Below, piece by piece: positions 28,889 through 55,360 of a stretch of DNA of 64,000 nt. A program made the translations under genes and the position numbers. Under the pieces are notes generated by a model. That model did not search any database and was not told the origin of the DNA. It saw nothing but the letters and a program-made list of their open reading frames with translations. The stretch is from Candidatus Latescibacterota bacterium. Its GTDB lineage: Bacteria; Latescibacterota; UBA2968; UBA8231. The stretch lies in assembly GCA_965204725.1 (NCBI GenBank), contig OZ242005.1, positions 4,832,001 to 4,896,000 of the forward strand, given 5' to 3'. Each line of letters opens with the position of its first letter. Position 1 is the first letter of the stretch.

Positions 28889-28892
28889 TTTT

Positions 28893-37760: not shown

Positions 37761-38783
37761 ATGCCTACCATCCCCACGCGCTCTTTGCGCACCGGCGTTG
37801 AGTTGAGCACCCTCGGCTTTGGCGGTGCCCCTTTGGGCGAGCTTTTCGATCCGGTCAGCGAAACCCAAGCCCAAGACACCCTGCAAGCGGCTTGGGACGC
37901 CGGTATCCGCTACTACGACACCGCCCCGTTTTACGGCTATGGCAAAAGCGAGCACCGCCTCGGCCACTTTCTCCGCCAGCAGGAGCGCGGCGACTTCGTG
38001 CTCTCGACCAAGGTCGGCCGAGTGCTCACCGCCACCCGCAATCTCCATTCTTTCGAGCAGGGCTTCTGGATCGGCGGCCTGCCCTTTGACTTCCGCTTCG
38101 ACTACGGGTACGATGGCATCATGCGCTCGTGGGAAGACAGCTTGCAGCGGCTGAGCCTCAACTCCATTGACCTGCTGTTGATCCACGACCTCGACAGCTT
38201 CTTCCACGACAGCGAGCAGCGCTTCTCCGCCCACCTCAACCGCCTGATCACCAGCGGCTGGCGCGCCCTCGACGAGCTGCGCTCCCACGGGCTGATCAAG
38301 GCCGTTGGTGCTGGCCTCAACCGCATGGGGGCCATGCCGCGCCTGCTCGACGGGGTGGACCTCGACTTCTGCATCGTCGCCATGCCCTATACGCTCTTGG
38401 ACCAAGACTCTCTCGACGAGGAGTTTCCCCTCTGCGAGGAGCGCGACGTGCGCATCGTCATCGGCGCGGTTTTCGCTTCCGGCATCCTCGCCTCCGGCCC
38501 GGTCGAGGGTGCTCGCTACGCCTACGACACTGCGTCGCCCGAAATCCTCGCCAAGACTCGCCGCATCCAAGCCGTCTGCCAGCGGCACGATGTCCCCTTG
38601 CCGGCCGCGGCCATGCAGTTCCCGCTCGGGCACCCCCTCGTCGCGGCCATCATCCCCGGTGCCCTCGTCCCGGCGCATGTCGAGACCAATGCCCAGTGGT
38701 TTAAGCACACCATACCAACCGATCTGTGGGCCGAGCTAAAGGCCGAGGGATTGTTGCGGGCAGATGCCCCGACGCCGAACTAA
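37761..38783 (+). CDS. Aldo/keto reductase (D-threo-aldose 1-dehydrogenase-like)
   Basis: LGFGGAPLG, GIRYYDTAPFYGYGKSE, LSTKVGR, IDLLLIHD; ATG at 37761 after AAGGAAG. Confidence 0.9.
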   Translation: MPTIPTRSLRTGVELSTLGFGGAPLGELFDPVSETQAQDTLQAAWDAGIRYYDTAPFYGYGKSEHRLGHFLRQQERGDFVLSTKVGRVLTATRNLHSFEQGFWIGGLPFDFRFDYGYDGIMRSWEDSLQRLSLNSIDLLLIHDLDSFFHDSEQRFSAHLNRLITSGWRALDELRSHGLIKAVGAGLNRMGAMPRLLDGVDLDFCIVAMPYTLLDQDSLDEEFPLCEERDVRIVIGAVFASGILASGPVEGARYAYDTASPEILAKTRRIQAVCQRHDVPLPAAAMQFPLGHPLVAAIIPGALVPAHVETNAQWFKHTIPTDLWAELKAEGLLRADAPTPN

Positions 38784-38793
38784 GAGGTTGAGC

Positions 38794-41700
38794 ATGAACC
38801 ATAAGCAGGTATTTGATCACATCCTCGGGCGGCACTACACGAACTTCGACGGGCTGGCCGGGATGCACGTGGAAGACATCTACCAAGACCGCCGCGGCCT
38901 GCTCTGGATCGCCACGGCCGACGGCGGCGTGGGCCGGTTCGACGGAGCGAATTTCGACATCTTTAGCCTCTCGAGAGGGGTTCCCCATATCACGGTAATG
39001 ACGATTGCTGAGGACCCAGACGGGCGAATGCTCTTCGGCACTCTCGGCGGCGGGCTAGCCGTATATGACGGGCAGGGGTTTCAGGTGCATACCACCGAGC
39101 ACGGGCTGCCGTCCAATGAGATCATGAGCCTGCAACCCCAAGCCGATGGCTCAATGCGGATGCTGACCGGCGCGGGGATAGGCCGGTTCGTCGATGGCCA
39201 GTGCGTAGAGTGCGTGACAGAAATTGCGGGGCAGCCGCTAGGCCCGGTGTACGACATGGCGACCGACGCGGCCGGTACGACGTGGTTGGCGACGCGGGAG
39301 CGCGGGGTTCTCAGCCTAGAGGGCCAGCCCCTGAGTGGGGACTTAGGCACGGGAAGCGGCGCGATGCAGTGGCCGTGGAAATTCGCCCAAGGCCCCTCCG
39401 GCCCTCTGTGGATCGCCTTTCGCTACACCGGTCGCAAACCCATTATCGGCTGCTATGATCCAGCGAGCAACCAGCTCGAACTCGTCGAGGTGGATGACCC
39501 AGCCGAGGAAGCCGAGATCGTCTGGCACGGTACGCGGCACGTGCGCGTCGATGATAGAGGCTTGCTGTGGATGACCTGCCGGGGCGTCTTGGTGTACGAC
39601 GGACGGGCTTGGCATCCATTCGCCACCGAGTTGCCGGATAGCCATTTTTCGGCGACGCGACTGACGTATGAAGACCGCGAGGGGAACATCTGGTTGGGGC
39701 TGTGGGGCGGCGGGCTGGTTTTTTGCGATCCGGTCAGCGTCCAGCTATACACCCAAGCCGATGGCCTGCCCGACAGCGAGGTCCAGTGTCTGAGCGAAGA
39801 CCGCGAAGGTCGGCTGTGGATCGGTACGATGGGGGGCTTGGCCTGCCGCCAAGACGACCGGATTCGCCCGGTAGATCCAAGGCGGGAGGTCTCAACGCTG
39901 GTGATTGACCAACAGGGGCAAGTCTGGAGCACAGGACCTGAGGGAGACATATTCAAGGCGACGGGTGGAGAGGCCGAGGCGATTGAGGGGGCCGAGACGA
40001 CCCTCACGGAAGGAATCGCGGGGCTGTGGGAAGACCAAGCAGGACGCCTAAACGTCTGCACTTCCGAGGGGCGATTGGGGCGGATCGAACAAGGTCGCTT
40101 TACGCCACTTGCGGAGCGGTTTCCCCGCGGTTGCACGGTCGTGTTACAGGATGGAGCAGGGACCCTCTGGGTCGGCCTCAGTAGGAAAGAGTCCGCGCTA
40201 TGCTATTATGAGGATGGTCGTTTCCACACGCCGACGGTGGCCGGCGTGAAAGACATCGGGAGTGTGAGTGCTTTGTGCGAGCACCAAGGCGCACTCTGGA
40301 TCGGGACGGAAAACTATGGCCTGTTCGCCTTGGACTACGCTTCCGAGGAGATCCGCCGGTTTACGGTGGATCAGGGGGGGCTGTCGGTCAATGGGATCTC
40401 GGCTCTGATGAGCGATCCGCAAGGCGATCTGTGGATTGGGACCAGCGGTGGGGGCGTCCTGAAGTACGACGGCCGGACCTTCCATACCATTCGGCTGGGA
40501 CAGGGCGCGTTGGAAAACATCGTCGAGGCCATTGTGCGCGACAGCCGGGGCCGGCTGTGGTTTGGGACGCGCAGGGGTCTCATTGCGTATCGGCCCGGGG
40601 AGACGCCGCCGCGCATCCTAATCCGCCAAGTCGTGGCCGGCCGAACTTGGGACGACCCCCAAGCCGTGTCCTGCCCAGACAGCACCCCCGAGATTCAGTT
40701 TCACTTCCAAGGCATCAGTTTCAGGAGTGGGGCCGGGCAGATGCGCTACAGCCACCGGCTCGTCGGCCCCGGCCGGGCCGAAGAGTGGAGCGCGTTCACG
40801 CCCGCCAATAAGGCGACGTACCGAGACGTGCCGGCCGGCCAGTTCCACTTTGAGGTGCGGACCACCGATCGGGATGGCTTGCTATCGGACATCGCCCGCC
40901 TAGAGGTTCGAGTGACCCCCTCTCCCCAGCGGCACATAGAGCACATGCTGCGGGCCTCGCATCAGGGTTTTATCAGCCAAAGTCCGGCCATGGCCGAGGT
41001 TCTCGAACGGGTCGACTCAATGGCCGAGGCGGACCTGCCGGTGCTGGTGCTGGGCGAGACCGGGGTTGGCAAGGGGGTGTTGGCGCGGCTTATCCACGAC
41101 CTTAGTCCGCGCCGAGCGAAACCCTTTATAGCGGTCAATTCCGGGGGCTTGTCCACCGGGGTGATACACAGCGAACTGTTTGGCCACGAAAAGGGGTCCT
41201 TTACCGACGCGCATGCCCAAAGAATCGGCTATTTTGAACGGGCTGATGGCGGCACCTTGTTCCTCGACGAGATAGGCGATTTGTCCGTAGAGTCCCAACA
41301 GCTCTTGCTCCACATCTTAGAGGATAAGAACCTGATGCGCCTCGGCGGCGGAAAGCCGATCCCGATAGATGTGCGGATTGTTGCTGCGACCAACAAGGAC
41401 CTCGAAGAGGCCATTCAGGCGGGCGTGTTCCGGGATGATCTGCTCTATCGGCTGAGGACATTATCAGTATTAGTACCGCCGCTGCGGGAGCGTCGGGAGG
41501 ATATCCCGCTCTTGGCGGCGTATTTTGCGAACCAGTGTGCCCAAACCCTAAAGCGGCCGGTGCCGACCTTAAGCGACGAAGTACTCGCGCACTTGCAGGA
41601 ATATCCTTGGCCGGGGAATGTGCGCGAATTGGCGCATCTGATACAGCAGGCGGTGGTGCTGGGCAAAGGGGATGTCATGCGGATAGAGGATGTACCGCTG

Positions 41701-41949
41701 ATGGCGGCCCCACCTGTTGAACAAGGCTCCGACGAGGGCACTGACGATGACGCCAAAAAGTGGGGATTCTTCGACGAGGATGCTAGAAATGAAGCCGAAA
41801 AGCAGCGAATTCTGAAGGCTCTCCAAACCACGAACTGGCGGGTCTCTGGCCCGCGGGGGGCGGCTCAGTTGTTGGAGATAAGCCCGGAGAAGCTGCGCTA
41901 TCGCATGCGTAAGTACGGGTTGAAACGGCCCGGGAAGGCGTCGCAGTAA
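38794..41949 (+). CDS. Sigma54-dependent enhancer-binding protein with N-terminal Reg_prop beta-propeller and Y_Y_Y domains
   Basis: Repeats EDREGRLWIGT / DSRGRLWFGT / DGLP; Y_Y_Y-like YSHRLVG...YRDVPAGQFHFEV; AAA+ GETGVGK, ELFGHEKGSFTDA, LFLDEIG, FRDDLLYRL, WPGNVREL; C-terminal Fis HTH AAQLLEISPEKLRYRMRKYGL. Confidence 0.92.
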   Translation: MNHKQVFDHILGRHYTNFDGLAGMHVEDIYQDRRGLLWIATADGGVGRFDGANFDIFSLSRGVPHITVMTIAEDPDGRMLFGTLGGGLAVYDGQGFQVHTTEHGLPSNEIMSLQPQADGSMRMLTGAGIGRFVDGQCVECVTEIAGQPLGPVYDMATDAAGTTWLATRERGVLSLEGQPLSGDLGTGSGAMQWPWKFAQGPSGPLWIAFRYTGRKPIIGCYDPASNQLELVEVDDPAEEAEIVWHGTRHVRVDDRGLLWMTCRGVLVYDGRAWHPFATELPDSHFSATRLTYEDREGNIWLGLWGGGLVFCDPVSVQLYTQADGLPDSEVQCLSEDREGRLWIGTMGGLACRQDDRIRPVDPRREVSTLVIDQQGQVWSTGPEGDIFKATGGEAEAIEGAETTLTEGIAGLWEDQAGRLNVCTSEGRLGRIEQGRFTPLAERFPRGCTVVLQDGAGTLWVGLSRKESALCYYEDGRFHTPTVAGVKDIGSVSALCEHQGALWIGTENYGLFALDYASEEIRRFTVDQGGLSVNGISALMSDPQGDLWIGTSGGGVLKYDGRTFHTIRLGQGALENIVEAIVRDSRGRLWFGTRRGLIAYRPGETPPRILIRQVVAGRTWDDPQAVSCPDSTPEIQFHFQGISFRSGAGQMRYSHRLVGPGRAEEWSAFTPANKATYRDVPAGQFHFEVRTTDRDGLLSDIARLEVRVTPSPQRHIEHMLRASHQGFISQSPAMAEVLERVDSMAEADLPVLVLGETGVGKGVLARLIHDLSPRRAKPFIAVNSGGLSTGVIHSELFGHEKGSFTDAHAQRIGYFERADGGTLFLDEIGDLSVESQQLLLHILEDKNLMRLGGGKPIPIDVRIVAATNKDLEEAIQAGVFRDDLLYRLRTLSVLVPPLRERREDIPLLAAYFANQCAQTLKRPVPTLSDEVLAHLQEYPWPGNVRELAHLIQQAVVLGKGDVMRIEDVPLMAAPPVEQGSDEGTDDDAKKWGFFDEDARNEAEKQRILKALQTTNWRVSGPRGAAQLLEISPEKLRYRMRKYGLKRPGKASQ

Positions 41950-41987: not shown

Positions 41988-42070
41988 GTCTGGCTCGGGA
42001 AGGACGGAGACCGGCTCTACGGCTTGTTCAACACGCCCCAATTTTCAGATCGCTTCTTAGAGGACGCTGT

Positions 42071-42140
42071 AAAAAGTTGTGCAAAAGTTGTGCAAAATCT
42101 GTTCACTTGCACAAGTTTTGCACAAGTTTTGCACAAAAAA
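42071..42140 (+). promoter_or_regulatory. Putative upstream activator sequence: phased TTGTGCAA/TTGCACAA boxes
   Basis: TTGTGCAA at 42077 and 42088 (degenerate at 42099); inverted TTGCACAA at 42107, 42118, 42129; 11-bp period; about 130-190 bp upstream of the sigma54 promoter; conserved in the copy at 55361-55430. Confidence 0.7.
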
Positions 42141-42217
42141 GTCGCAAATCAACTTGCGATGACGCCTCATGCTGGCCTCGTTGAGATTTTTTTTTGCTAT
42201 CCAACGTCTTGTTTTTC

Positions 42218-42266: not shown

Positions 42267-42282
42267 TGGCACGAAATTTGCA
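42267..42282 (+). promoter_or_regulatory. Sigma54 (-24/-12) promoter
   Basis: TGGCACGAAATTTGCA matches the TGGCACGNNNNTTGCW consensus; downstream of a sigma54 activator gene. Confidence 0.88.
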
Positions 42283-42327: not shown

Positions 42328-43473
42328 ATGGAAGCCCTGCTCAACGATTTTGGCCGCGTGTTTTTGCTGGAGTTGGTTATGGCCTGCGCCATTACCATCT
42401 GCGGTTGCTATACAACCTATACCGATATTCACTTCCGCCATATCCCCCATTGGGCTAGTTGGGGACTGCTGGCCGTAGGTTTAATAGGCCAAGGTCTATT
42501 TTGGATTTGGGGTGCGGTCGAACTGGACCAAGCAGGCATCGTCTTGTTGGTCGGTTTTGTTGTTGGTTACGTACTCTATATCTACGGATTTTGGGCACCC
42601 GGCGACGCCAAGTTGTTTTGGGCTTTTGTCTTGGTGCTGCCGCCGACGTTCTTCCCCTCCACTTCCCTCTCCTCCTTTGACGCGCCGATTTGGGCGCTCC
42701 TGCTCAACGCCTTAGTGCTCACCTGTTTTGTCTTGCTGGCGCTGTGGGCGGTTTTGCGTCGGGGGCGGTCGGCGGAAGTCGAGGGGGATTGGGGGCCATC
42801 GCAATGGCTGTATCTAGGCTTGGAGTTGGCCGGCCTGATAGGGCTCGTGCTGGGGTTTGGCTCCTTCCTGCTGGCCGAGACGATGACCTTTGTAGAGGTC
42901 GTGGTCGCCATCTTGGTGCTCTATCTGCTCGTTGACCACTTCGTCCCCCAGAGTTACCGGCTGACCTTGGCCCTGCCCGGTCTTATCCTCGGCGGCTACA
43001 CGGCCCTGCAATCGGGAGAATGGCTGATCTATCTGGTGCTGTGGGTCCTCGCTTGGGGGGTGTTCTCCCTCTATAGCATCATCCGGCATCTAGTCCCTCG
43101 GCACTTCGTACAGGCGATTCCTATTCAGGCGTTGCGCGCCGGCATGGTGCCGCAGGTAGCGATCTACGCGGCGGATACCGGCGGAGCGGCGGAATACCGT
43201 TGTGGCGCAGAGGTTGGGCCGGGGCAAGATGTGCTGTGTTATCCTGGCCGGCCGTTGACCAAGGGGCAGGTGCGGACGTTGCACGAAAAATCGGCGGGCG
43301 GTGCTTTCGCGCCGTTTGGCCATGAGTTGGCAGTGGAACTGGCCGTCCCTTTCGCGCCGATAATCGCCGTCGCTGGGGTGCTGACCCTAGTCTTGGGCGG
43401 CAGTCTAATCAGACCCCTGATACAGTTGTTCTCTCCGTGGCTGCCGTCGCTTCAGCAGTTGTTGGTGGGGTAA
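42328..43473 (+). CDS. A24 prepilin/preflagellin peptidase-like aspartic peptidase (FlaK/PibD-like C-terminal domain)
   Basis: First Asp motif TYTDIHFRHIP, GxGD-type motif WAPGDAKLF, multi-TM, soluble insert followed by VPFAPIIAVAGVLTLVLG as in archaeal-type preflagellin peptidases. Confidence 0.8.
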   Translation: MEALLNDFGRVFLLELVMACAITICGCYTTYTDIHFRHIPHWASWGLLAVGLIGQGLFWIWGAVELDQAGIVLLVGFVVGYVLYIYGFWAPGDAKLFWAFVLVLPPTFFPSTSLSSFDAPIWALLLNALVLTCFVLLALWAVLRRGRSAEVEGDWGPSQWLYLGLELAGLIGLVLGFGSFLLAETMTFVEVVVAILVLYLLVDHFVPQSYRLTLALPGLILGGYTALQSGEWLIYLVLWVLAWGVFSLYSIIRHLVPRHFVQAIPIQALRAGMVPQVAIYAADTGGAAEYRCGAEVGPGQDVLCYPGRPLTKGQVRTLHEKSAGGAFAPFGHELAVELAVPFAPIIAVAGVLTLVLGGSLIRPLIQLFSPWLPSLQQLLVG

Positions 43474-43475
43474 TC

Positions 43476-44093
43476 ATGAACCGAGATAGAAAAGACCCTG
43501 TAACACTGGCCTTTGGCGTCCTGTTGGTCGCCTTGCTGCCAACCTTTTTCCTGTTGGTGAGCCACTACCCGTCGTTAGAGGAGCGCGTGCAACAGTTGAA
43601 GCCTAAGCCCTTGGTGCCCGCGCCTTCACTGGAGGATCTGTTGGCGCAAGTCAGCCAAGCCGTATCCGACAGTACGCTCCAACTCCAACAGGTATGGGCT
43701 GCCGAGCCGGAACCGACTTCTGGCCTAGTGGCCGACTACAAGGTCGTGCGCGGCGGCCTAGCGGTCTATCGGCTGGTTCTATTCCGCCACGACATCGCCT
43801 GTAGCGTGTGCCGGGACGTGTTGGCCGCCGCTCTGTACGATGGCGACTCACTGGTGCAGATCTTTCTGCTCGACGATTGGGAGGTGCGCGGCGAGCGGGT
43901 TGATACCGCACAGTTTTTGCGCCAATTCGCGGGTCGCCCGCTGGCAACCGAACTGGCTCTTGAGGCCAATGTCGATGGGATCAGCGGGGCCACGTTTTCA
44001 ACCGGGGGCCTCGTCGAACAGCTCAACACGGCGGCGGCGTGGGTGCGGGCGCATCCGCTGGAGCCGCCGGCAAGCGAGGGAGAAAACCTGTGA
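43476..44093 (+). CDS. Membrane-anchored FMN-binding protein with CxxC
   Basis: N-terminal TM, CSVC, FLRQFAG...VDGISGATFST (FMN_bind flavinylation motif). Confidence 0.8.
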   Translation: MNRDRKDPVTLAFGVLLVALLPTFFLLVSHYPSLEERVQQLKPKPLVPAPSLEDLLAQVSQAVSDSTLQLQQVWAAEPEPTSGLVADYKVVRGGLAVYRLVLFRHDIACSVCRDVLAAALYDGDSLVQIFLLDDWEVRGERVDTAQFLRQFAGRPLATELALEANVDGISGATFSTGGLVEQLNTAAAWVRAHPLEPPASEGENL

Positions 44094-44629
44094 ACGCTCT
44101 CAGACCCAATCGCTGGGCTACGACCTTGATCGTGGCTACGGGCCTCCTGTTGGGAGCCTGTGTATTCCTAGCGGCCAAGATCGTCAATCCTCCGCCGATT
44201 GATCGGCTCGATGTGGCGTTTTGGGATTTGCTGGGTACGCAAGCGGCTATCCTCGAATTAGAGAGCCTGACGGGCACAGACAAGGTTTCCAACGCGCAGT
44301 TTGCGGGCGAGCCCTATCTGCTCATTTTCGCCGACCCGACTTGCAGTGCCTGCGAGGCCATTTATCCCCACTTGCTGCGCGCCTCGCAAGTGCAGGGCGT
44401 GAATGTCCTGTTCATTGCCTCGGGCGACCGGCAGGCGATGCAAGACAAAGTGGAGGAACACAGTTTTGCATTCCCGGTCGCCTTTGATTCCCTGTTGACG
44501 GCCAATAAGCCCTTTGAGGTGGGTGCTTTTCCCGCCTCTGTACTGGTGGATGCCGAAGGCAACATTGCCAAAGCCGCTACCGGCGATCAGGGTGCTGTCG
44601 CCGTAATACGCTTGGCTGGTAGTTCCTGA
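44090..44629 (+). CDS. Membrane-anchored TlpA/redoxin-family protein
   Basis: GTGA overlap start, TM anchor, CSAC, FPVAFD, AFPASVLVDAEG. Confidence 0.82.
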   Translation: MNALRPNRWATTLIVATGLLLGACVFLAAKIVNPPPIDRLDVAFWDLLGTQAAILELESLTGTDKVSNAQFAGEPYLLIFADPTCSACEAIYPHLLRASQVQGVNVLFIASGDRQAMQDKVEEHSFAFPVAFDSLLTANKPFEVGAFPASVLVDAEGNIAKAATGDQGAVAVIRLAGSS

Positions 44630-44644
44630 AAGGATGGATGCGCC

Positions 44645-45349
44645 ATGTACGTTGTAACTCTCTTGCGTCGTCCGGTGGTGTGGACGGTGGTGGCCAGCGT
44701 CGCGGTCGTGGTCTTTTTGGCCTTGCGTCCCTCTTCGTCGGCCCTCTCGCCGGTGGTGTGGACCGAGCCCTCGGCTAATCCGCTGGCCGAGGTGCTGCGG
44801 CCGGGGGATACCGCGCCGGACTTCGCGCTGCCGGCGGTACAGGGCGGCACGGTCGCCTTGAGTGCGTTGCGGGGAAAGCCCGCTTTGCTGGCCTTTGTTA
44901 CGGCGGAGTGTCCGTATTGTCAGAAGCTATACAAGCAACTCGAAGCCTTTGAACTGAATGCGGACCAACAACTCGTATTCATCTGCCCAAGCGAGGAGGG
45001 TGCTCGGAAAATCAGCGAGACCTATTCCTTTACGTATCCGGTGTTGATCGACTCGGCTGGGGCGATTTCACAGGCGTACAAAACCCCTGGGGTGCCTGCG
45101 GTGTATCGGGTCGGCCCCGAGGGGAAGATTGTGGATTTGGCGGTGGGATGGCCGACGGCTTGGACGTTTGTTCGGGGTTTTGGCCGCCTCCAGCTTAGCG
45201 AAGGCTCTGAAGGTTATTCGTTTAATGGCTCAATCATCATGCTGGCCCAGAAAGGAGGTGCATCCCGTGCTCGTAGGTTTGATGCTCGTCAGCAACCACA
45301 ACGGTTTGCTGATCCTTTTTCCAATTACTCAAGGAGAATTGCGTTATGA
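44645..45349 (+). CDS. Membrane-anchored TlpA/redoxin-family protein
   Basis: GDTAPDFALP, CPYC, YPVLID, GVPAVYRVGPEGKI. The last ~45 residues run over the repeated intergenic segment and may be read-through. Confidence 0.85.
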   Translation: MYVVTLLRRPVVWTVVASVAVVVFLALRPSSSALSPVVWTEPSANPLAEVLRPGDTAPDFALPAVQGGTVALSALRGKPALLAFVTAECPYCQKLYKQLEAFELNADQQLVFICPSEEGARKISETYSFTYPVLIDSAGAISQAYKTPGVPAVYRVGPEGKIVDLAVGWPTAWTFVRGFGRLQLSEGSEGYSFNGSIIMLAQKGGASRARRFDARQQPQRFADPFSNYSRRIAL

Positions 45350-45687
45350 AATCTCTACTTTTGTTCTTGCAGGCGGTGCTGGTGCTGCCGCTGGTGGCTC
45401 CGCTGGTGGAGTTCGCCACGTCAACCAGCGGGCACGTTGAGCCGCGTGAGGGGTTGGCGCTGGGCTGGCTGGGCAGCGTGGTGGCGGGGCTGGCGGTGGT
45501 GTTCGGCACGGCCGACCAGACCCAGGCCGATTCCTGCTACGGAATCTCGGAGGGAAGCAAGGGATCGTACACAACGTCGGATCCATGCGAGTGGAGGGAC
45601 CATAAACCCTTCAGGTATTGGGTGAATTATTATCGCCACTACGAAGGGGGACCGGGCTGTGTCTATCTGTATTCTGTATGCGTATAG
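45346..45687 (+). CDS. Secreted 4-Cys mini-protein P1 (61-aa leader, 52-aa core)
   Basis: SD AAGGAG; leader ends QTQA; core DSCYGISEGSKGSYTTSDPCEWRDHKPFRYWVNYYRHYEGGPGCVYLYSVCV (C-x16-C-x23-C-x6-C); five paralogs in the window. Confidence 0.8.
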   Translation: MKSLLLFLQAVLVLPLVAPLVEFATSTSGHVEPREGLALGWLGSVVAGLAVVFGTADQTQADSCYGISEGSKGSYTTSDPCEWRDHKPFRYWVNYYRHYEGGPGCVYLYSVCV

Positions 45688-45798
45688 CCCGGTCGCCCAG
45701 TAGCCCCGTCGCTACGGCTCCCGGCTGTATCTATCAGCGTTTTGCATGCGGTCAGGTGAGCTCCTGTGACGTTATACGGTAGTTGCCAAGACGACGCG

Positions 45799-45833
45799 CC
45801 CCTGTGGTACTTTCGGGCCAAGTACCACAGGGG
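45799..45833 (+). other. Conserved 14-bp-stem hairpin between peptide and FG-GAP genes, copy 1
   Basis: CCCCTGTGGTACTT-TCGGGCC-AAGTACCACAGGGG; identical at 48621-48655 and 56218-56252; no U-tract. Confidence 0.75.
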
Positions 45834-45895
45834 TAGGCGTCCTTATGTCGCTCAGAACATCCTAAAACAAATCTATCACGCTTTGGAGGTTCGTT

Positions 45896-48034
45896 ATGCG
45901 CGGTTTGCTCGTTGCGATTGGATTGGTGGTGGCTCCATTTAAGGTCTTGGCTTTAACATGGGATTTTGACGCGGGCACGACTTGGGGATGGGCAGCCCAA
46001 GAGAGCGCCTTCGGCTCAGACCATGGTACGACCACGGTGTACAGCGAAGTCGCAGATGGCGTCTGGCGCATTGCGCCGGTGCCGCACGGGAAAAGACCAG
46101 CCATTCGCTTGCTCTCGCCGCTGATTGGGGAAGACTCTGACCTGTTCGACTGGGTCACCCTACGGCTACGCATCATCCACGATCTCCCCACCGAGGGGGT
46201 CCTTGAAATGTCGTGGTCCAATGTCGAGTACAGACGCCGCAAGAAGGAAGAACCCAGCGTAGGGTTGGGATTTTTTGTAAGCCGTCCTCAAGTTTATTCC
46301 ACCGAATGGGAAGACATCACCATAGATATACGGGCTTTGGAAGCGGCTCCAGCAGGAGAGATCGATTGGGAGGTCACTTGGGAGGACACTCTCTTCCACT
46401 TCTTCTTAGACCTAGACTTATTGCATCTACACGACATACAAGAATCCAGCTTAAGCCCGGCGGCTCGTCCGACCTTTGTCGAAGTCGATTGGATTCAACT
46501 GACGGGTGCTGAAGAGTTGCTGCTGGGGGAGTTGCAGCCTCGGGCGAGCATCGTGGAGGCCGGGTTGCCTGGGACGTTGTTTGCGGAACCGCGTTTTTCG
46601 GTGTTGGGTCGAAATATCGGTAACCCAGGATCGCATGGTACTTTGGGCGATGTGGATGGCGATGGGGATGCCGATCTGGTCGTGAAATGGGAGGAAATAA
46701 TGGCGAGCGATGGCTGGTCCATAGCGACCAGCGATGGCTTGGGGAGCTTGGTCCCTACCCAAGAGGTCCTCCTCCCACAGGAGGCTTATTCGATTCCGAT
46801 GATTACGGGAGGCGATTTCGACGGGGATGGGCTTCTCGATCTGGCCTTTAGTACCGGTCGAACTATCGAATTGTGGCTCAACCGGGGCGAGGATGGATTT
46901 GAAACCATCCTACAGCTATCCGATAGCTATTTCATCGGTCTAGCCGATGGCGACGGCGATGGCGATGTGGACCTGTTGGCGGTAGAAGACCGCGACGACC
47001 TATGGTCTAACTTGACTATGTGGATCAACGATGGCGCGGGCGGGTTTGCCCACAGCGATCGGTTCGTCCTCGACACCGAAGAAGAGCTCGGTCGTTTCCT
47101 GCTGGCAGGGCAACCGGAGGGCGAGGCCGTGCGTGTGCTGTGGATCCGACCCTGCTGGAAGCCGCAGGGGCCGTGGCGGCTGACCCAGCCATGGGCGGCA
47201 AACGAGGAGCCACCGCTGTTTTTTGAGCTTGGGGAGGTCAACCCCTGCGACATGGACCTGCTGGCCGATCTGGATGGGGATGGAGCGGTAGAGTTAGTCG
47301 GAACGCCCGAGCGGAACCTGTTCCCGGGCTTTTCTCGGGGCAACACCCATCACGGTTTAGCCCTGTGGCGCGTGAACCCTTCGGGCGGAGTGGAACGCCA
47401 CACCCTGCTCGGTCCGCAGGTGATCGTGCCGTATTCGTGGCCTAAAAGTGGGGTCATTGCCAGCGACCTGACCGGCGATGGCCTTTTGGACTTGGCCGTA
47501 ATCAATACCAACTTAGCGATGAATCCGGCCCTGATTGTCTTGGTTGGCCAGCGCGATGGCCTGCCCGTCGTCGAAGGGCACTACCCCCTGCCCACCATCG
47601 GCCGCAGCCTGCTCGCAGGCGACGTCAACGGCGATGGGGCGACCGATCTGGTCGTGCTGGGGCGGAGTCAGCGCGGCGACGGCGGAGCCTTCGTCTTCCT
47701 CAACCAAGGCGTTCCCGCCACTGCCATCGCCGCCGAGACGACGACCATGCCTACGACCTTTGCCCTCGGTGCCAACTATCCCAACCCGTTCAACCCGGCC
47801 ACGACCATTCCCGTGTCGGTGGCGGTGGGTGCGGGCGAGGTCGATTTAACCATCTATAACGTCTTGGGGCAGCCGGTGCGCCGCGTGTGGGCGGGTTCGT
47901 TGGCGGCGGGCGAACACCGGCTGGCTTGGGATGGCCGGGACACGCAGGGGCAACCCGTTGCCGCTGGAGTCTATTTGTATCGGTTGCAGGTGGGCGACCA
48001 GACGCGCATTCGCAAGATGGTCAAAATTGAGTAG
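45896..48034 (+). CDS. Secreted FG-GAP/VCBS-repeat protein with C-terminal FlgD-Ig/T9SS-like domain (FG1)
   Basis: Signal peptide, repeats GDVDGDGDADL, GDFDGDGLLDL, DGDGDGDVDL, DLDGDG, SDLTGDGLLDL, GDVNGDGATDL; tail LGANYPNPFNPATTI...WDGRD.QG.PVAAGVYLYRL...RKMVKIE. Confidence 0.9.
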   Translation: MRGLLVAIGLVVAPFKVLALTWDFDAGTTWGWAAQESAFGSDHGTTTVYSEVADGVWRIAPVPHGKRPAIRLLSPLIGEDSDLFDWVTLRLRIIHDLPTEGVLEMSWSNVEYRRRKKEEPSVGLGFFVSRPQVYSTEWEDITIDIRALEAAPAGEIDWEVTWEDTLFHFFLDLDLLHLHDIQESSLSPAARPTFVEVDWIQLTGAEELLLGELQPRASIVEAGLPGTLFAEPRFSVLGRNIGNPGSHGTLGDVDGDGDADLVVKWEEIMASDGWSIATSDGLGSLVPTQEVLLPQEAYSIPMITGGDFDGDGLLDLAFSTGRTIELWLNRGEDGFETILQLSDSYFIGLADGDGDGDVDLLAVEDRDDLWSNLTMWINDGAGGFAHSDRFVLDTEEELGRFLLAGQPEGEAVRVLWIRPCWKPQGPWRLTQPWAANEEPPLFFELGEVNPCDMDLLADLDGDGAVELVGTPERNLFPGFSRGNTHHGLALWRVNPSGGVERHTLLGPQVIVPYSWPKSGVIASDLTGDGLLDLAVINTNLAMNPALIVLVGQRDGLPVVEGHYPLPTIGRSLLAGDVNGDGATDLVVLGRSQRGDGGAFVFLNQGVPATAIAAETTTMPTTFALGANYPNPFNPATTIPVSVAVGAGEVDLTIYNVLGQPVRRVWAGSLAAGEHRLAWDGRDTQGQPVAAGVYLYRLQVGDQTRIRKMVKIE

Positions 48035-48177
48035 GGTGAAGGCTCTTGAGCCATGGACTCAATCGCGGCTACGGGCCAGAAAGGAGGTTCTATCTCGTGC
48101 ATGTAGGTTTGCTGGTCATTCGGCAACCAAGACGGTTTGCTGATTCTTTCTTCTACCCTTTTGAGGAGGATTGAGTT

Positions 48178-48510
48178 ATGAAGTCTTTGCCTTTGTTCTT
48201 GCAGTCGGTGCTGATGCTGCCGCTGGTGGAGTTCGCCACGTCAACCAGCGGGCACGTCGAGCCGCGTGAGGGTTTGGCGCTGGGCTGGCTGGGCAGCGTG
48301 GTGGCGGGGCTGGCGGTGGTGTTCAGCACGGCCGACCAGACCCAGGCCGATTCCTGCTACGGAATCGCGGAGGAAAGCATTGGATATAACCAAACGGGTC
48401 TCCCATGTGCCTGGAAAGACGATGAACCCTCCAAGTATTGGAGGGATTATTATTATCACCATTCTGGGAAGCCGGGCTGTGTCTATCTGTATTCTGCATG
48501 CAGCGTATAG
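48178..48510 (+). CDS. Secreted 4-Cys mini-protein P2
   Basis: SD GAGGAGGA; leader nearly identical to P1; core DSCYGIAEESIGYNQTGLPCAWKDDEPSKYWRDYYYHHSGKPGCVYLYSACSV. Confidence 0.8.
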   Translation: MKSLPLFLQSVLMLPLVEFATSTSGHVEPREGLALGWLGSVVAGLAVVFSTADQTQADSCYGIAEESIGYNQTGLPCAWKDDEPSKYWRDYYYHHSGKPGCVYLYSACSV

Positions 48511-48721: not shown

Positions 48722-50851
48722 ATGCGCGGTTTGCTCGTTGCGATTGGATTGGTAGTGGCTCCCCTTAAGGTCTTGGCTTTAACGTGGGATTTTGACGCGG
48801 GCACGACTTGGGGATGGGCAGCCCAAGAGAGTGCCTTCGGCTCAGACCATGGTACGACCACGGTGTACAGCGAAGTCGCAGATGGCGTCTGGCGCATTGC
48901 GCCGGTGCCGCACGGGAAAAGACCAGCCATTCGCTTGCTCTCGCCGTTGATTGGGGAAGACTCTGACCTGTTCGACTGGGTCACCCTACGGCTACGCATC
49001 ATCCACGATCTCCCCACCGAGGGGGTCCTTGAAATGTCGTGGACCAATGTCGAGTACAGACGCCGCAAGAAGGAAGACCCCAGCGTAGGGTTGGGATTTT
49101 TTGTAAGCCGTCCTCAAGTTTATTCCACCGAATGGGAAGACATCACCATAGATATACGGGCTTTGGAAGCGGCTCCAGCAGGAGAGATCGATTGGGAGGT
49201 CATTTGGCAGGACACCCTCTTCCACTTCTTCTTAGACCTAGACTTATTGCATCTACACGACATACAAGAATCCAGCTTAAGCCCGGCGGCTCGTCCGACC
49301 TTTGTCGAAGTCGATTGGATTCAACTGACGGGTGCTGAAGAGTTGCTGTTGGGGGAGTTGCAGCCTCGGGCGAGCATCGTGGCGGCCGGGTTGCCTGGGA
49401 CGTTGTTTGCGGAACCGCGTTTTTCGGTGTTGGGCCAAAATATCGGTGACCCCACATCGCACGGTGCTTTGGGCGATGTGGATGGCGATGGGGATGCCGA
49501 TCTGGTCGTGAAATGGAAGGCAATGGCGAGCAGTGGCTGGTCCATAGCGACCAGCGATGGCTTGGGGAGCTTGGTCCCCACCCCAGAGGTCCGCCTCCCA
49601 CAGGCGGCTTATCCGGAGATTGCGGGAGGCGATTTCGACGGGGATGGGCTTCTCGATCTGGCCTTTAGTACCGGTCGAACTATCGAATTGTGGCTCAACC
49701 GGGGCGAGGATGGATTTGAAACCATCCTACAGCTATCCGACAGCTATTTCATCGGTCTAGCCGATGGCGACGGCGACGGCGATGTGGACCTGTTGGTGGT
49801 AGAAGACCGCGACGACCTATGGTCTAACATGACTATGTGGGTCAATGACGGCGCGGGCGGGTTTGCCCACAGCGATCGGTTCGTCCTCGACACCGAAGAA
49901 GAGCTCGGTGGTCGCCCGCTGGCAGGGCAACCAGTAGGCGAGGCCGTGCGCGTGTTATGGTACCGACCCTGCTGGAAGCCGCAGGGGCCGTGGCGGCTGA
50001 CCCAGCCATGGGCGGCAAACGAGGAGCCACCGCTGTTTTTTGAGCTTGGGGAGGTCAACCCCTGCGACATGTACCTGCTGGCCGATCTGGATGAGGATGG
50101 ATCGGTTGAGTTGGTCGGAACGCCCGAGCGGAACCTGTACCTAGGCTTTTCTGGCGGCAACACCCATCACGGTTTAGCCCTGTGGCGCGTGGACGCCTCG
50201 GGCAAGGTGGAACGCCACACTCTGCTCGGTCCGCAGGTGATCGTGCCGTATTCGCCGTCTAAGGGTGGGGTCATTGCCAGCGACCTGACCGGCGATGGCC
50301 TTTTGGACTTGGCCGTAATCAATACCAACTTAGCGATGAATCCGGCCCTGATCGTCTTGGTTGGCCAACGCGATGGCCTGCCCGTCGTCGAAGGGCACTA
50401 CCCCCTGCCCACCATCGGCCGCAGCCTGCTCGCAGGCGACGTCAACGGCGATGGGGCGACCGATCTGGTGGTGCTGGGGCGGAGTCAGCGCGGCGACGGC
50501 GGAGCCTTCGTCTTCCTCAACCAAGGCGTTCCCGCCACTGCCATCGCCGCCGAGACGACGACCATGCCTACGACCTTTGCCCTCGGTGCCAACTATCCCA
50601 ACCCGTTCAACCCGGCCACGACCATTCCCGTGTCGGTGGCGGCGGGTGCGGGCGAGGTCGATTTAACCATCTATAACGTCTTGGGGCAGCCGGTGCGCCG
50701 CGTGTGGGCGGGTTCGTTGGCGGCGGGCGAACACCGGCTGGCTTGGGATGGCCGGGACGCACAAGGACAGCCGGTCGCCGCCGGGGTCTATTGGTATCGG
50801 TTGCAGGTGGACGACCAGACGAGCACCCGCAAGATGGTCAAAATCGAATAG
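48722..50851 (+). CDS. Secreted FG-GAP/VCBS-repeat protein with FlgD-Ig/T9SS-like tail (FG2)
   Basis: Close paralog of 45896-48034. Confidence 0.9.
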   Translation: MRGLLVAIGLVVAPLKVLALTWDFDAGTTWGWAAQESAFGSDHGTTTVYSEVADGVWRIAPVPHGKRPAIRLLSPLIGEDSDLFDWVTLRLRIIHDLPTEGVLEMSWTNVEYRRRKKEDPSVGLGFFVSRPQVYSTEWEDITIDIRALEAAPAGEIDWEVIWQDTLFHFFLDLDLLHLHDIQESSLSPAARPTFVEVDWIQLTGAEELLLGELQPRASIVAAGLPGTLFAEPRFSVLGQNIGDPTSHGALGDVDGDGDADLVVKWKAMASSGWSIATSDGLGSLVPTPEVRLPQAAYPEIAGGDFDGDGLLDLAFSTGRTIELWLNRGEDGFETILQLSDSYFIGLADGDGDGDVDLLVVEDRDDLWSNMTMWVNDGAGGFAHSDRFVLDTEEELGGRPLAGQPVGEAVRVLWYRPCWKPQGPWRLTQPWAANEEPPLFFELGEVNPCDMYLLADLDEDGSVELVGTPERNLYLGFSGGNTHHGLALWRVDASGKVERHTLLGPQVIVPYSPSKGGVIASDLTGDGLLDLAVINTNLAMNPALIVLVGQRDGLPVVEGHYPLPTIGRSLLAGDVNGDGATDLVVLGRSQRGDGGAFVFLNQGVPATAIAAETTTMPTTFALGANYPNPFNPATTIPVSVAAGAGEVDLTIYNVLGQPVRRVWAGSLAAGEHRLAWDGRDAQGQPVAAGVYWYRLQVDDQTSTRKMVKIE

Positions 50852-50860
50852 GGAGCGGAC

Positions 50861-52243
50861 ATGCTGGAGATGTGCGCCAACCCGAGAAGAAAAGGACATA
50901 AGACGATGAGACGACCATGGAAAGTACCGTTGCAAAAAAATAGAAAGCTGCAAAGCTGCCTAGTGTTGTCGCTGGCCTTGCATCTGCTGGTGATCTTCGG
51001 CCTCACGCACCGCGAGCAGGTTGCCCAATTTCCCGTCCTGTCGCCGATCATGGTGGAGTTTACCAAGCACCCGCCGCCGCAGCGCACCCTCACCCGCCGC
51101 CAACGACCCCGGCAGCGGCCGTTGGCGCGGCGACCCGCCCTGCAAGCAGCCCCAGTCGCCGCGGTGCGCCCGGCCCCCACGGCGACACGTCCCCTGCCGA
51201 TGTTCAAGTCGGCGGCACTTAGGCTGCCGACAGCGGCCCTGCCGGATCGGCTGGTACTACCTGTGCCGGACTTCCCCGCTCGGCACATTGGTCCGCAAAT
51301 GCAGGCTGGGGCATTGGAAGGGACGCGGCAAGGGGCCGACGAGATTGACTTGGCCTTGGAACTGATGGATGTGCAGGCCATGGACACCGGCCAGCACCGG
51401 GCGATAGTGGTCGTCGATCCAAAAGACCGGCGTCAACTCAAGGGATTCCTCTATATGTCTGGAATCTACAGCCCCTCCATTGAACAGGCTGACAGTGAAC
51501 ATCACGGATACAGACCAAGTAGTTGGTGGCACCAGATGCCGCGCCGATTGGCGGAACGGCGGATTTTGCAAGGGTTGGCCGATGAGATGACCACCAAGAC
51601 ACAGGTTCAGGTTGAAGTGCGCGACGCGGTCCGACTCGACGATCCGCAGCTTTTGCAAATCCCCTTCGTGCTGTTGACCATCGATACCCTCTTTGAGTTT
51701 ACGGACAGTGAGGCGGCCAACCTCGGGGCGTATTTAACTTCGGGTGGCTTCTTGTCTGTGGATATTGGGAGCTTTTTGCAGGACAATTACAGCGACGACG
51801 AATTGGACATTCCGGCGGCGCGTTCTCTCATTCGCGCCAGCTTTCAAGCGGTGGGTTATCAAGAATGGAAGGATTGGCAGTTCAAGCGCCTAGCGATAAC
51901 GCATCCGATCTATCATTGCTTCTACGATATAAACAGTCTGCCACGTGGGATGCGCGATATGCACTTTCTAAACAGAGAATCTCCACCGCCAACTCCAGAC
52001 TATTTGGAGGGTATCGTAGTAGGTGAGCAGTTAGTGGGGGTGTACTCGATGCGTGGCTACGCCGATTTCTGGGCGGGAATCGCTAGGCAGGAGCTAGACC
52101 ATGCTTTGGAGTATAACTCACCCAGCAACTGGTTTCTGGCCAGTGCCGAGGAGCCGATGGTGTATAACTTGGGCGTGAACTTCTTGGTGTATGCGTTGAC
52201 ACGCGAGGGCTCATTGGCCCAACAATTAGTCGATGCGGGCTGA
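50861..52243 (+). CDS. DUF4159-domain protein with TM anchor and Pro/Arg-rich linker
   Basis: LVLSLALHLLVIFGL TM, Pro/Arg linker, FEFTDSEAANLGAYLTSGGFL..D, HPIYHCFYD, YLEGI, LGVNFLVYALT. Confidence 0.8.
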   Translation: MLEMCANPRRKGHKTMRRPWKVPLQKNRKLQSCLVLSLALHLLVIFGLTHREQVAQFPVLSPIMVEFTKHPPPQRTLTRRQRPRQRPLARRPALQAAPVAAVRPAPTATRPLPMFKSAALRLPTAALPDRLVLPVPDFPARHIGPQMQAGALEGTRQGADEIDLALELMDVQAMDTGQHRAIVVVDPKDRRQLKGFLYMSGIYSPSIEQADSEHHGYRPSSWWHQMPRRLAERRILQGLADEMTTKTQVQVEVRDAVRLDDPQLLQIPFVLLTIDTLFEFTDSEAANLGAYLTSGGFLSVDIGSFLQDNYSDDELDIPAARSLIRASFQAVGYQEWKDWQFKRLAITHPIYHCFYDINSLPRGMRDMHFLNRESPPPTPDYLEGIVVGEQLVGVYSMRGYADFWAGIARQELDHALEYNSPSNWFLASAEEPMVYNLGVNFLVYALTREGSLAQQLVDAG

Positions 52244-52297: not shown

Positions 52298-52978
52298 ATG
52301 ATGCAGTCTTTAATGTTTGTTTTTAAGGCTCTCGCCCCGTCGTCGAGCGGGCACGTAGAGCCACGTCAGGTGCTGAGGTGGCTGAGCAACATGGGGGCGG
52401 GGCTGGCGGTGGTGTTCAGCACGGCCGACCAGACGCCGGCCGATACCTGCTTTGGGATCGCAGAAGGAAGCAGAGGGTATCACACAACGACGATTCCATG
52501 CGACCGGCAAGACCCTAAACTCGCCGAGTACTGGGAGGATCATTATTCCCACGATTCTGAGACGCCGGCCGATAGCTCTCGGCAGGATCATTATTTACAC
52601 CATCGTGGAAATCCGGGATGTGTTTATCTGACTTCTACCTGTGGCCCAAGTACGGCCACGGCCACCGCCATCGAGTCCGAGACGGTGATCACCCCCTCAG
52701 CCTTTGTCCTCGGTGCGAACTACCCCAACCCATTCAATCCGGCCACGACTATCCCCCTTACCGTACCCGCCGGAGCCGAGGAGGTCGATTTAACCATCTA
52801 TAACGTCTTGGGGCAGCCCGTGCGCCGCGTGTGGGCAGGTTCGTTGGCAGCGGGCGAACACCGGCTAGCTTGGGAAGGCCAAGACGCACAGGGCCAACCC
52901 GTTGCCGCTGGAGTCTATTTGTATCGGTTGCAGGTGGGCGACCAGACGCGCATCCGCAAGATGGTCAAAATCGAGTAG
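52298..52978 (+). CDS. 4-Cys mini-domain fused to FlgD-Ig/T9SS-like tail (P3)
   Basis: Leader SGHVEPRQVLRWL...AGLAVVFSTADQTPA; core DTCFGIAEGSRG...PC...YW...PGCVYLTSTC; linker; NYPNPFNP tail. Confidence 0.82.
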   Translation: MMQSLMFVFKALAPSSSGHVEPRQVLRWLSNMGAGLAVVFSTADQTPADTCFGIAEGSRGYHTTTIPCDRQDPKLAEYWEDHYSHDSETPADSSRQDHYLHHRGNPGCVYLTSTCGPSTATATAIESETVITPSAFVLGANYPNPFNPATTIPLTVPAGAEEVDLTIYNVLGQPVRRVWAGSLAAGEHRLAWEGQDAQGQPVAAGVYLYRLQVGDQTRIRKMVKIE

Positions 52979-53128: not shown

Positions 53129-54334
53129 ATGGAAATCATTCCGTTAATTCCCGAATGCGACGTAGCGGTACAGCGTATGCGAGTCGAACAAAATCGCGAT
53201 GTACGCACCCAAGCGAAGGCTTGTCTCCTTTTGGGTCGTTATTACAAGGAACAAGGAGAACTCGACAAGGCCGAAGCACTGTACCAAAGAGCCTTTGCGA
53301 AAGCACGGTCGTTGCAGGCGCATGACATAGAAGCCGATGCGTGTAGTGGCTTGGGGCTTATGTATCAGGTCAAGGGTCGGATGGATAAGGCGGTTGAGTA
53401 TCTCAATGCAGCCTTTGCCATCAATAGCCAACGCCGCGATAACGAGCGTTTGGCCGTCAACTATAGCAATAGAGGCTTTATCGCCCAGCTCCAAGGAAAA
53501 ATCGCAGAGGCCCAAGAGTTGCATATCCTCGCTCAGCAACTCCACACAGCGTTGGGGAATAGGGCTTATTGGGCTGAAGAATGCGGCAACTTGGGGCAAT
53601 TGGCACTCCAGCAAAACAAACCGGAGGAGGCTGAGGCTCACTTCCAGCAGGGCTTGAACGTTTGCACAGAACTCGGCGATCTGTCGGGCATTTCCGGCCA
53701 CTATCAGGGCTTGGGGCTAGTCTATCTCGGACAGCAGCGGTTGGCCGAAGCCGAAACCGTCCTTAAAAAAGGCGTTGAGATCGAGGAGCGACTCCAGCGC
53801 GACGAGGGGTTGGCTCATCATTACAGCGTTCTGGGGGCCGTATATAGTCAAGCGGGTCGATTTGATGAGGCGGAAGCAATGTACCGTCAGACGCTGGCTA
53901 TCCAACGAAAATTAGGCCATAAACAGTTTGAGGCTCGCACCTTGGGCGGTTTGGGGCAGGTGCTACGGGAGAAAGGTGCTCTGCAAGAAGCCACGGCGTT
54001 CTTCCAACAGGCTGGGGCACTGTTCGACGCGATTGGAGACAACAAAGGCCAAGCGATGCAAGCAGCTATTTTGGGCGATACTTATATGGACGTTGAAAAC
54101 TTTTATGCGGCTGAGGAGGCGTATCGGCAGGCGTTGCAAGTGTTCACGGAAGTATCGGACTTAGAGGCTGTCGCCGCCATTAAAGTCAGCTTGGGGAGGG
54201 CCTATGCGTCGAATCAGGCCCCTTTTGATGCCTTACTTCAGTGGCGGCAAGCACTGGAACTATACCGCGAACTCCAACGAGACGACAAGGTTGAGTTCGT
54301 AGAACAACTTCTGAGGACGAGCGGCCGAATGTGA
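53129..54334 (+). CDS. Tetratricopeptide repeat protein
   Basis: About nine 40-aa TPRs (LGRYYKEQGELDKAEALYQRA, LGAVYSQAGRFDEAEAMYRQTLAI). Confidence 0.9.
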   Translation: MEIIPLIPECDVAVQRMRVEQNRDVRTQAKACLLLGRYYKEQGELDKAEALYQRAFAKARSLQAHDIEADACSGLGLMYQVKGRMDKAVEYLNAAFAINSQRRDNERLAVNYSNRGFIAQLQGKIAEAQELHILAQQLHTALGNRAYWAEECGNLGQLALQQNKPEEAEAHFQQGLNVCTELGDLSGISGHYQGLGLVYLGQQRLAEAETVLKKGVEIEERLQRDEGLAHHYSVLGAVYSQAGRFDEAEAMYRQTLAIQRKLGHKQFEARTLGGLGQVLREKGALQEATAFFQQAGALFDAIGDNKGQAMQAAILGDTYMDVENFYAAEEAYRQALQVFTEVSDLEAVAAIKVSLGRAYASNQAPFDALLQWRQALELYRELQRDDKVEFVEQLLRTSGRM

Positions 54335-55350: not shown

Positions 55351-55360
55351 GCTAATCTGT

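Follow-up and report, generated by a model that had tools for sequence, protein, structure and literature searches.

A conserved-leader, variable-core mini-protein superfamily of sponge-associated Latescibacterota: selection on the core and a putative maturation route

How can a small protein keep one of its parts almost unchanged after duplication of its gene and replace so much of the other? The question is raised by two tandem genes, P1 and P2, in a 64,000-nucleotide stretch of the forward strand of a Candidatus Latescibacterota bacterium genome (assembly GCA_965204725.1, contig OZ242005.1, positions 4,832,001 to 4,896,000), which we call the window and in whose own numbering coordinates are given. 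Each gene encodes a mini-protein precursor with a leader and a cysteine-rich core, and a first-pass annotation made from the letters alone had proposed positive selection or targeted diversification of the core on a fixed disulfide scaffold, reminiscent of conotoxin or defensin families. We consider it probable, though well short of certain, that the two genes belong to a lineage-restricted superfamily of exported mini-proteins with a constrained leader, a diversified core and a dedicated route encoded by an operon. P1 and P2 would then be tandem paralogues among small exported proteins of sponge-associated Latescibacterota, and each precursor would join a near-invariant N-terminal leader of 44 to 61 residues to a core of 45 to 60 residues held by 4, 6 or 8 Cys.

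A codon alignment of P1 and P2 showed that the 40 leader codons from E22 to A61 differ by one replacement (G54S) and two synonymous changes, which makes 3 of 120 bases. Between D62 and C112, in the core, 21 of the 51 aligned codons were replaced and 39 of 153 bases differed (19 transitions and 20 transversions); the sole synonymous change among the 30 unchanged codons was TGC/TGT in the second Cys. The annotation had counted one leader difference in 40 residues and the same core differences by hand, and the codon alignment reproduced these numbers; its list of features fixed across the seven core domains of the window (four Cys, GI, YW, H and C-x-Y-L) was likewise confirmed, so that a fixed disulfide scaffold with fast-evolving positions is supported. 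Non-synonymous differences were concentrated in the core relative to the leader (Fisher p = 6.7e-7).

The silent differences between the two cores require more careful counting. A third-position difference was present in 10 of the 21 replaced codons versus 1 of the 30 unchanged codons (Fisher p = 2e-4), and a count of silent change restricted to unchanged codons therefore understates it. By the Nei-Gojobori method the P1–P2 cores are separated by 8.8 silent and 30.2 replacement steps, and the proportion of differences is 0.276 at silent sites (pS) and 0.243 at replacement sites (pN); the ratio is only 0.85 because in 12 of the 21 replaced codons two or three bases have changed. In the flanking sequences the silent divergence (dS) was 0.118 for the leader and 0.085–0.134 for the FG-GAP genes F1 to F3 that follow the mini-protein genes (0.085 for F1–F2), with ratios of 0.28–0.38, and core pN exceeded flank pS (Fisher p = 4.5e-6). 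Maximum likelihood on P1 and P2 alone favoured model M2a over M1a (likelihood-ratio test (LRT) statistic 19.9, p = 5e-5), with the ratio of replacement to silent rates (omega, or dN/dS) at its boundary. The pair thus reflects one of two histories: very rapid turnover of a few sites after a recent duplication, or the replacement of whole codons in single events.

The same design was found well outside this pair. A search of 5.8 billion proteins returned 175 homologues of the mini-protein, 62–198 residues long, and the leader was common to all of them and near letter-identical. Cysteines could be counted in 116 of the 120 listed homologues, those with a recognisable leader end: 36 cores contained 4 Cys, 54 contained 6, 18 contained 8, and 8 contained some other number. 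The motifs recur in a shorter leader of 44 residues, whose Cys-rich cores are quite different. Of the 76 genomes in the taxonomic family, 26 matched the leader profile; in the genus the leader family was present in 20 of 30 genomes besides the source genome, with at most 20 copies per genome, and in a collection of 1.84 billion representative proteins the profile matched only 56 clusters. The named relatives carrying the family are metagenome-assembled genomes of Candidatus Latescibacterota, and about half of the sampled words sit in runs labelled sponge metagenome; the mini-protein family is found so far only in sponge-associated bacteria. No Pfam or NCBIfam model matched the mini-protein and no description of the family was found in the literature. 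This conserved-leader, hypervariable-core family, joined to several Cys frameworks, is an undescribed superfamily.

Some of its members are irregular. An open reading frame (ORF) of genome G007 (locus L033, at locus position 2453) has a remnant of the leader helix and A-x-A between two cores, and unequal recombination that fused two precursor genes seems to have produced this two-domain protein. In another ORF (locus L032 of genome G019, at 1967) and in the proteins P0099, P0109 and P0121 the leader is kept and the sequence turns unrelated a few residues into the core; these are probably frameshifted pseudogenes.

Selection on the core was analysed with our own implementation of the Goldman-Yang codon likelihood (M0, M1a and M2a, with optional rates for multiple-base changes), and not with PAML or HyPhy. 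The sample of 4-Cys cores comprised 15 distinct sequences of 49 codons from four genomes and one metagenome contig, a number that did not grow because the metagenome and genome DNA scans added only 2 and 6 loci, respectively. For these 15 sequences M0 gave an omega of 0.81, and M2a was preferred over M1a with an LRT statistic of 26.3 (p = 2e-6), or 10.9 (p = 0.004) when multiple-base terms were included. Two unrelated cores carried on the short leader behaved in a similar manner: core family A (11 sequences) had an M0 omega of 1.13 and LRT statistics of 52.9 (p = 3e-12) and, with multiple-base terms, 23.7 (p = 7e-6), and core family B (13 sequences) had an M0 omega of 0.83 and LRT statistics of 55.1 (p = 1e-12) and 8.3 (p = 0.016). 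In the 4-Cys core M2a placed 16% of the sites in a class with an omega of 3.9, positions 11, 15, 17, 18, 23 and 32 having a posterior above 0.9, and about half of the sites (55–62%) fell in the class with an omega of 1. A control with 13 short leaders yielded an M0 omega of 0.14 and an LRT statistic of 0. The proposal of positive selection thus stands for a minority of sites, in three core families, and not for the core as a whole, whose dN/dS did not exceed 1 with the wider sampling; at that minority of sites we regard positive selection as moderately supported.

The cleanest evidence for diversifying selection on the core is provided by recent paralogue pairs in other genomes. The recent pairs of genome G067 had no silent change in 28–35 unchanged codons next to 10–18 replaced codons (pN/pS 2.5–3.5), the recent pair of G019 had none in 40 unchanged codons next to 7 replaced codons (pN/pS 4.6), and the pair of G007 combined 1 silent change in 57 leader codons with 18 replaced core codons. 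Summed over nine recent pairs, the differences at codon positions 1, 2 and 3 numbered 76, 67 and 48 in the core and 8, 2 and 16 in the leader. Under the model that we propose, the cores would diversify by repeated tandem duplication, segment exchange among paralogues and positive selection at about 6 to 12 of the 49 positions, and most other core positions outside the scaffold would drift almost freely.

The leader evolves under a different regime. Over its 44–61 residues it contains S-x-S-G, then R-x-G-L-x-L-G-W, which opens a 19-residue hydrophobic helix, and then A-x-A. In a logo built from 163 of 173 proteins the G, L, G, W and R of the central motif were conserved at 100, 97, 99, 93 and 96%, respectively; the invariant Gly has Arg at position -2 and is followed by 19 positions of which all but one are 86–100% hydrophobic. 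A polar stretch of 20 residues precedes the hydrophobic stretch in the short-leader class, and a second hydrophobic segment is present in long leaders. For 43 leader codons compared between genomes, the median pS was 0.373 and the median pN 0.042 (136 pairs from a set of 17 genes in which two genes are present twice from overlapping loci). Omega between genomes is thus about 0.1, which means that the leader is kept by purifying selection and not by conversion alone, an explanation that the annotation had named as part of what would undercut its reading.

We also placed the variable sites on a predicted structure. AlphaFold2, run with 37 sequences, modelled the P1 core with predicted local distance difference test (pLDDT) values of 77–96 and strands at residues 72–84, 87–98 and 105–112, with the leader unconfident. 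The P1–P2 replacements alternate along the first two strands: they occupy 6 of 7 even and 2 of 6 odd positions in strand 1, and 4 of 6 odd and 2 of 6 even positions in strand 2. Together with the two-residue turn this alternation gathers the variable residues on one side of the hairpin and leaves the opposite side to the conserved Cys, Trp, Tyr and His, a face assignment derived from the strand periodicity of the alignment and the prediction and not from coordinates. The core would accordingly be pictured as a three-stranded beta sheet in which one hairpin face is diversified. Foldseek with the core model gave no match at E 0.001 or better, and among the 48,161 chains searched with VIA the best Z was 2.8, and a defensin-like bacteriocin, at Z 2.6, ranked level with unrelated entries; these searches neither name nor exclude a family for the core. 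A match in the ESM Atlas (best score 0.76) belonged to an unnamed cluster and was not usable.

P1 is the fifth gene of an operon that begins 46 nucleotides after a perfect match to the sigma-54 promoter. Only two zero-mismatch sigma-54 consensus sequences occur in the 64 kb, and they lie at homologous places, one before the gene for an A24-like protease and one before P3; scans for sigma-70 promoter and terminator consensus sequences gave nothing above shuffles. The protease at the head of the operon matched PF01478 with 26.9 bits (cut-off 26.5), and with 30.3 bits in the genome scan, where it was the single match; both of its Asp motifs (D33 and G-D-A-K-L) were invariant in 7 homologues, and a sequence search of solved structures with it returned no match at E 1. 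The T2SSE assembly ATPase (PF00437) had no match in the 94%-complete genome, although the same control was positive in 13 of 14 genomes. A single A24 gene without a T2SSE ATPase points to a protease without a pilus to serve. The protease is followed by a flavin mononucleotide (FMN)-binding protein and two ResA/TlpA-like redoxins, and ten other genomes have this protease–FMN–redoxin block immediately upstream of a leader-bearing mini-protein. Arrays of the short-leader class hold versions of the block at about 40% identity, together with genes for TPR, GT1-transglutaminase, DUF4159 and activator proteins. Across 76 genomes the protease and the leader were both present in 23 and both missing in 45, with the leader only in 3 and the protease only in 5 (Fisher p = 1e-11, related genomes not being independent). 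From the conserved operon and the leader logo we infer that the leader is the substrate of the protease and that the redoxins form the disulfides. The leader would serve as the handle by which a dedicated pathway matures and exports the precursors; this pathway, specified by the same sigma-54 operon, would consist of an orphan prepilin-peptidase-like protease and, for disulfide formation, an extracytoplasmic FMN/thioredoxin-like module.

The cores may reach the cell surface by type IX secretion. The genome encodes type IX machinery (PorU, 623 bits with a cut-off of 420; SprA_N, 84.5 bits with a cut-off of 27), and a query with the sorting-domain-bearing protein R had about 148 matches in it. 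The sorting-domain model TIGR04183 scored 36.8 bits on R (cut-off 23), and the sorting domain of F1 scored 35 bits. Neither Pfam nor NCBIfam matched a sorting domain on P1 or P2, which end 1–2 residues past the last Cys. Export could occur through a protein's own sorting domain in the case of Q1, Q2 and R or, more speculatively, by riding on the neighbouring FG-GAP protein, and the cores would probably be binding modules displayed on the outside of the cell. When the P1 core was modelled in complex with mature F1, the median score was 0.55 (0.71, 0.45 and 0.55), the best of three controls being 0.00; the partner had pLDDT 70–77 and at least 80% of the contacts agreed between runs. In the calibration of this score, solved complexes came up to the mark in 58 of 80 cases and mismatched pairs in 2 of 110, and at scores of 0.60 or under the mark was reached by 7 of the 80 solved complexes plus both passing mismatches; since we used our own alignments the calibration is only roughly applicable, and the prediction lends weak support to binding of F1 by the P1 core. 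No co-variation of mini-protein and FG-GAP protein was seen: P1 equals P3, yet F1 and F3 differ most in the variable patch. That patch comprises residues 241–300 of F1 (about 46616–46795) and the corresponding stretch of F2 and F3; pN and pS are nearly equal there (0.09–0.18), the ratio elsewhere being 0.2–0.4.

Several observations weigh against the reading that we favour, and many of them are what would be expected without positive selection, if some 27 core positions were nearly unconstrained, conversion kept the leader and flanks alike, and the core were an older recombined cassette. Whole-core omega is 0.85 pairwise and 0.81 under M0, piN/piS without a tree is 0.63, and more than half of the core sites fall in the neutral class; piN exceeds piS in 12 of 49 columns and is more than twice piS in 1 of 49, and pN exceeds pS in 8 of 14 within-genome pairs versus 8 of 43 between-genome pairs. 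The multiple-base terms strongly improve every model and cut the LRT statistics, absorbing much of the signal, and with double- and triple-change terms the test on P1–P2 alone falls to 6.7 (p = 0.035); the codon models, which the annotation had named as a check, speak more for selection in the 15-sequence set than in the original pair. Paralogues and arrays are visibly mosaic, as is the identity along the three repeat units of the window, and recombination of this kind inflates site tests, which here were run with our own code on short alignments. The median leader pS was 0.177 within genomes (82 pairs) versus 0.454 between genomes (700 pairs). Paralogues of genome G070 have base-identical leaders on cores with 8–14 silent differences in 19–31 unchanged codons, and leader homogenisation or core exchange at the leader junction is therefore real; such identical-leader pairs show homogenisation or cassette exchange and not fast core change. 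Three comparisons between genomes (L038 with L061, L034 with L035 and L095 with L099) gave cores silently closer than their own leaders (for example leader pS 0.453, core pS 0.083), a hint either that cores travel as cassettes from one genome to another or that each genome resets leaders to its own version. An old cassette should, however, carry silent differences, and P1–P2 have 1 in 27–30 unchanged codons against a family mean of 18.6% (binomial about 0.03), a deficit repeated in the pairs of G007, G067 and G019; M2a still beats M1a with multiple-base terms in all three core families, and the leader control contains no positive class. We therefore think that an account without positive selection is rather unlikely, though it deserves serious attention. 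A diversity-generating retroelement, or another templated hypermutation that rewrites the core, could also be invoked, given that the changes are clustered by codon with little silent change in neighbouring codons and that the fitted multiple-base rates are high. Reverse transcriptase (PF00078, RVT_1) had no match in the 94%-complete genome, the control being positive in 3 of 14 genomes; neither a template-like core copy differing at adenines only nor an eighth core copy of any kind was found in the whole 5.43-Mb genome, where tblastn returned only the 7 coding copies; and the 39 P1–P2 base differences span 12 substitution types and are not confined to adenine. The P2 core was letter-identical in contigs of three runs from three studies, and the P1 core in contigs of one study, bearing in mind that contigs hide rare variants. 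Family-wide, the invariant codons have a normal silent diversity (piS 0.353), which speaks against templating at the base level. With no reverse transcriptase, no template, 12 substitution types and identical cores across studies, a retroelement or ongoing hypermutation is very unlikely, and the retroelement form of the targeted diversification proposed earlier falls away.

The remaining alternatives concern the nature of the precursor. Pilin-like subunits, with a class III signal cut by the A24 protease, the helix retained and a fibre bearing a variable, disulfide-braced head, would account for the protease with both Asp motifs heading the operon, for its co-occurrence with the leader, and for an invariant Gly followed by a hydrophobic stretch of 19 residues, with a polar leader of 20 residues in the short-leader class; the leaders resemble type IV prepilins in exactly these respects, and in the variable C-terminal part braced by disulfides. 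They differ from them in having Trp (93%) and not Glu at position +5, with no match to the NCBIfam pilin motif at E 0.1, in the conserved A-x-A after the helix and in the second hydrophobic segment of the long leaders. The lack of a detected assembly ATPase and the presence of the same core in soluble multidomain proteins with type IX sorting domains also oppose a fibre, which we regard as quite improbable. The departures from the prepilin consensus count against our own proposal for the protease too, as do the compatibility of the A-x-A site with ordinary signal peptidase and the FMN-binding matches, which lie under their cut-offs. Precursors of RiPPs (peptides that are synthesised on ribosomes and modified after translation), in which the leader recruits modifying enzymes such as the GT1-transglutaminase fusion and the core is the modified product, would match the design: prochlorosin and NHLP-type families comprise many paralogues per genome with one conserved leader and unrelated hypervariable cores, and the cluster has kept both the GT1-transglutaminase-like fusion and DUF4159. 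In contrast to those families, Pfam scans of the 12 locus proteins and 25 other window proteins detected no lanthipeptide synthetase (LanM) and no radical-SAM- or YcaO-type or comparable enzyme. The leader here is hydrophobic and Sec-like, with a membrane-spanning helix and a signal-peptidase site, and the cores are folded disulfide domains of 45–60 residues that appear to fold autonomously and also occur inside larger secreted proteins. The RiPP-like reading is improbable in our judgement. The most specific form of the exported-superfamily reading, in which a pilus-less prepilin-peptidase-like protease and a flavin/thioredoxin module mature a combinatorial library of disulfide-rich binders that type IX secretion delivers to the surface, partly on FG-GAP carriers, is offered tentatively, as a possibility that may well prove wrong.

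The comparison with conotoxins holds at the level of architecture. Conotoxin superfamilies, like the defensin-like Cys-rich peptide families of animals, have a conserved pre-region, a hypervariable mature part, few fixed Cys frameworks and a history of tandem duplication, with a non-synonymous excess at some sites and multiple-base codon changes. The mini-proteins share the design of pre-region and mature part, the use of a few Cys frameworks (4, 6 and 8 Cys), the tandem duplication and, at some sites, the non-synonymous excess with multiple-base codon changes, and the likeness is one of design only: here the genes are bacterial, the leader has a membrane helix and a link to a prepilin-peptidase-like protease, omega over the whole core stays below 1, and no relationship in sequence or fold to conotoxin or defensin families was seen. 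Among secretion systems, the locus resembles type IX cargo in the sorting domains of Q1, Q2, R and the FG-GAP proteins and in the PorU and SprA of the genome, and departs from it in P1, P2 and P3, which have no sorting domain. The extended signal peptide region of autotransporters (ESPR) gave no Pfam match (E 0.01), and the likeness of the long leader to it, an N1-H1-N2-H2-C layout, is a visual one only. Venom peptides and combinatorial natural products come from families with a conserved leader and a hypervariable core. If a bacterial family paired several Cys frameworks with a protease and a redox module of its own, it would constitute a new natural scaffold library, would represent a new use of the prepilin-peptidase fold, and could form a bacterial counterpart of venom-peptide superfamilies that sponge symbionts direct at hosts, phages or competitors. 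The family also offers a way to study how symbionts of sponges that have not been cultured vary the molecules that they secrete or carry on their surface, and a small operon with a single sigma-54 promoter makes the question open to direct test.

Table 1. Genes and sequence elements of the mini-protein locus, in window coordinates.
Feature	Coordinates	Strand	Description and basis
Activator	38764..41949	+	sigma-54 enhancer-binding activator with propeller sensor domain; Pfam
Palindromic repeat 1	42067-42151		before the A24-like gene
Sigma-54 promoter 1	42267-42282	+	perfect consensus, after palindromic repeat 1; before the A24-like gene
A24-like protease	42328..43473	+	prepilin-peptidase-like membrane aspartyl protease; first operon gene
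FMN-binding protein	43437..44093	+	FMN-binding domain (RnfG-like); Pfam and NCBIfam matches weak
Redoxin 1	44039..44629	+	thiol-disulfide oxidoreductase 1 (redoxin / ResA-like)
Redoxin 2	44645..45349	+	thiol-disulfide oxidoreductase 2; end overlaps P1 start
P1	45346..45687	+	mini-protein precursor, 113 residues; leader 45346-45528, 4-Cys core 45529-45684; ORF and codon alignment
F1	45896..48034	+	712-residue FG-GAP propeller with type IX sorting domain, directly downstream of P1; Pfam, NCBIfam
P2	48178..48510	+	mini-protein precursor, 110 residues; leader 48178-48348, core 48349-48507; ORF and codon alignment
F2	48722..50851	+	FG-GAP / type IX paralogue, downstream of P2
DUF4159 protein, copy 1	50861..52243	+	membrane protein
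Q1	52298..52978	+	shortened leader, one 4-Cys core with insert, type IX C-terminal sorting domain
TPR protein	53129..54334	+	
Q2	54491..55168	+	Q1 paralogue; architecture as Q1
Palindromic repeat 2	55357-55430		upstream of P3
Sigma-54 promoter 2	55557-55572	+	consensus, after palindromic repeat 2; upstream of P3
P3	55765..56106	+	third stand-alone mini-protein gene; protein exactly that of P1
F3	56319..58454	+	FG-GAP / type IX paralogue, downstream of P3
DUF4159 protein, copy 2	58464-59822		
R	59881..60723	+	truncated leader, two tandem 4-Cys cores, type IX sorting domain
GT1 fusion	60733..63231	+	GT1 glycosyltransferase / transglutaminase-like fusion
Core domains (n = 7)	starts 45529, 48349, 52442, 54638, 55948, 59986, 60202		all core domains of the window

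The window contains three tandem units of a mini-protein gene and a gene for a protein of about 710 residues, P1-F1, P2-F2 and P3-F3 (Table 1). Between the second promoter and P3, at 55602-55764, the first codons of the A24-like gene are kept and are followed by the 3' end of the second redoxin gene; read in this way, the second repeat unit appears as a duplication minus the four upstream genes. The cores of Q1 and Q2 (52442-52642 and 54638-54838) contain an insert of about 16 residues in which the aromatic/His motif just before it occurs again, which amounts to a small duplication inside the core domain. Three short-leader genes are located elsewhere in the source genome, each upstream of FG-GAP genes, and no conserved upstream context was found at these three loci. 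Past the window end (G000:C1:4896276-4900426) the array goes on with two FG-GAP genes (649 and 720 residues), which have no preceding mini-protein gene. Unrelated to the mini-protein finding, a Type ISP restriction-modification gene (N6_Mtase and Type_ISP_C) occupies 28758-32084.

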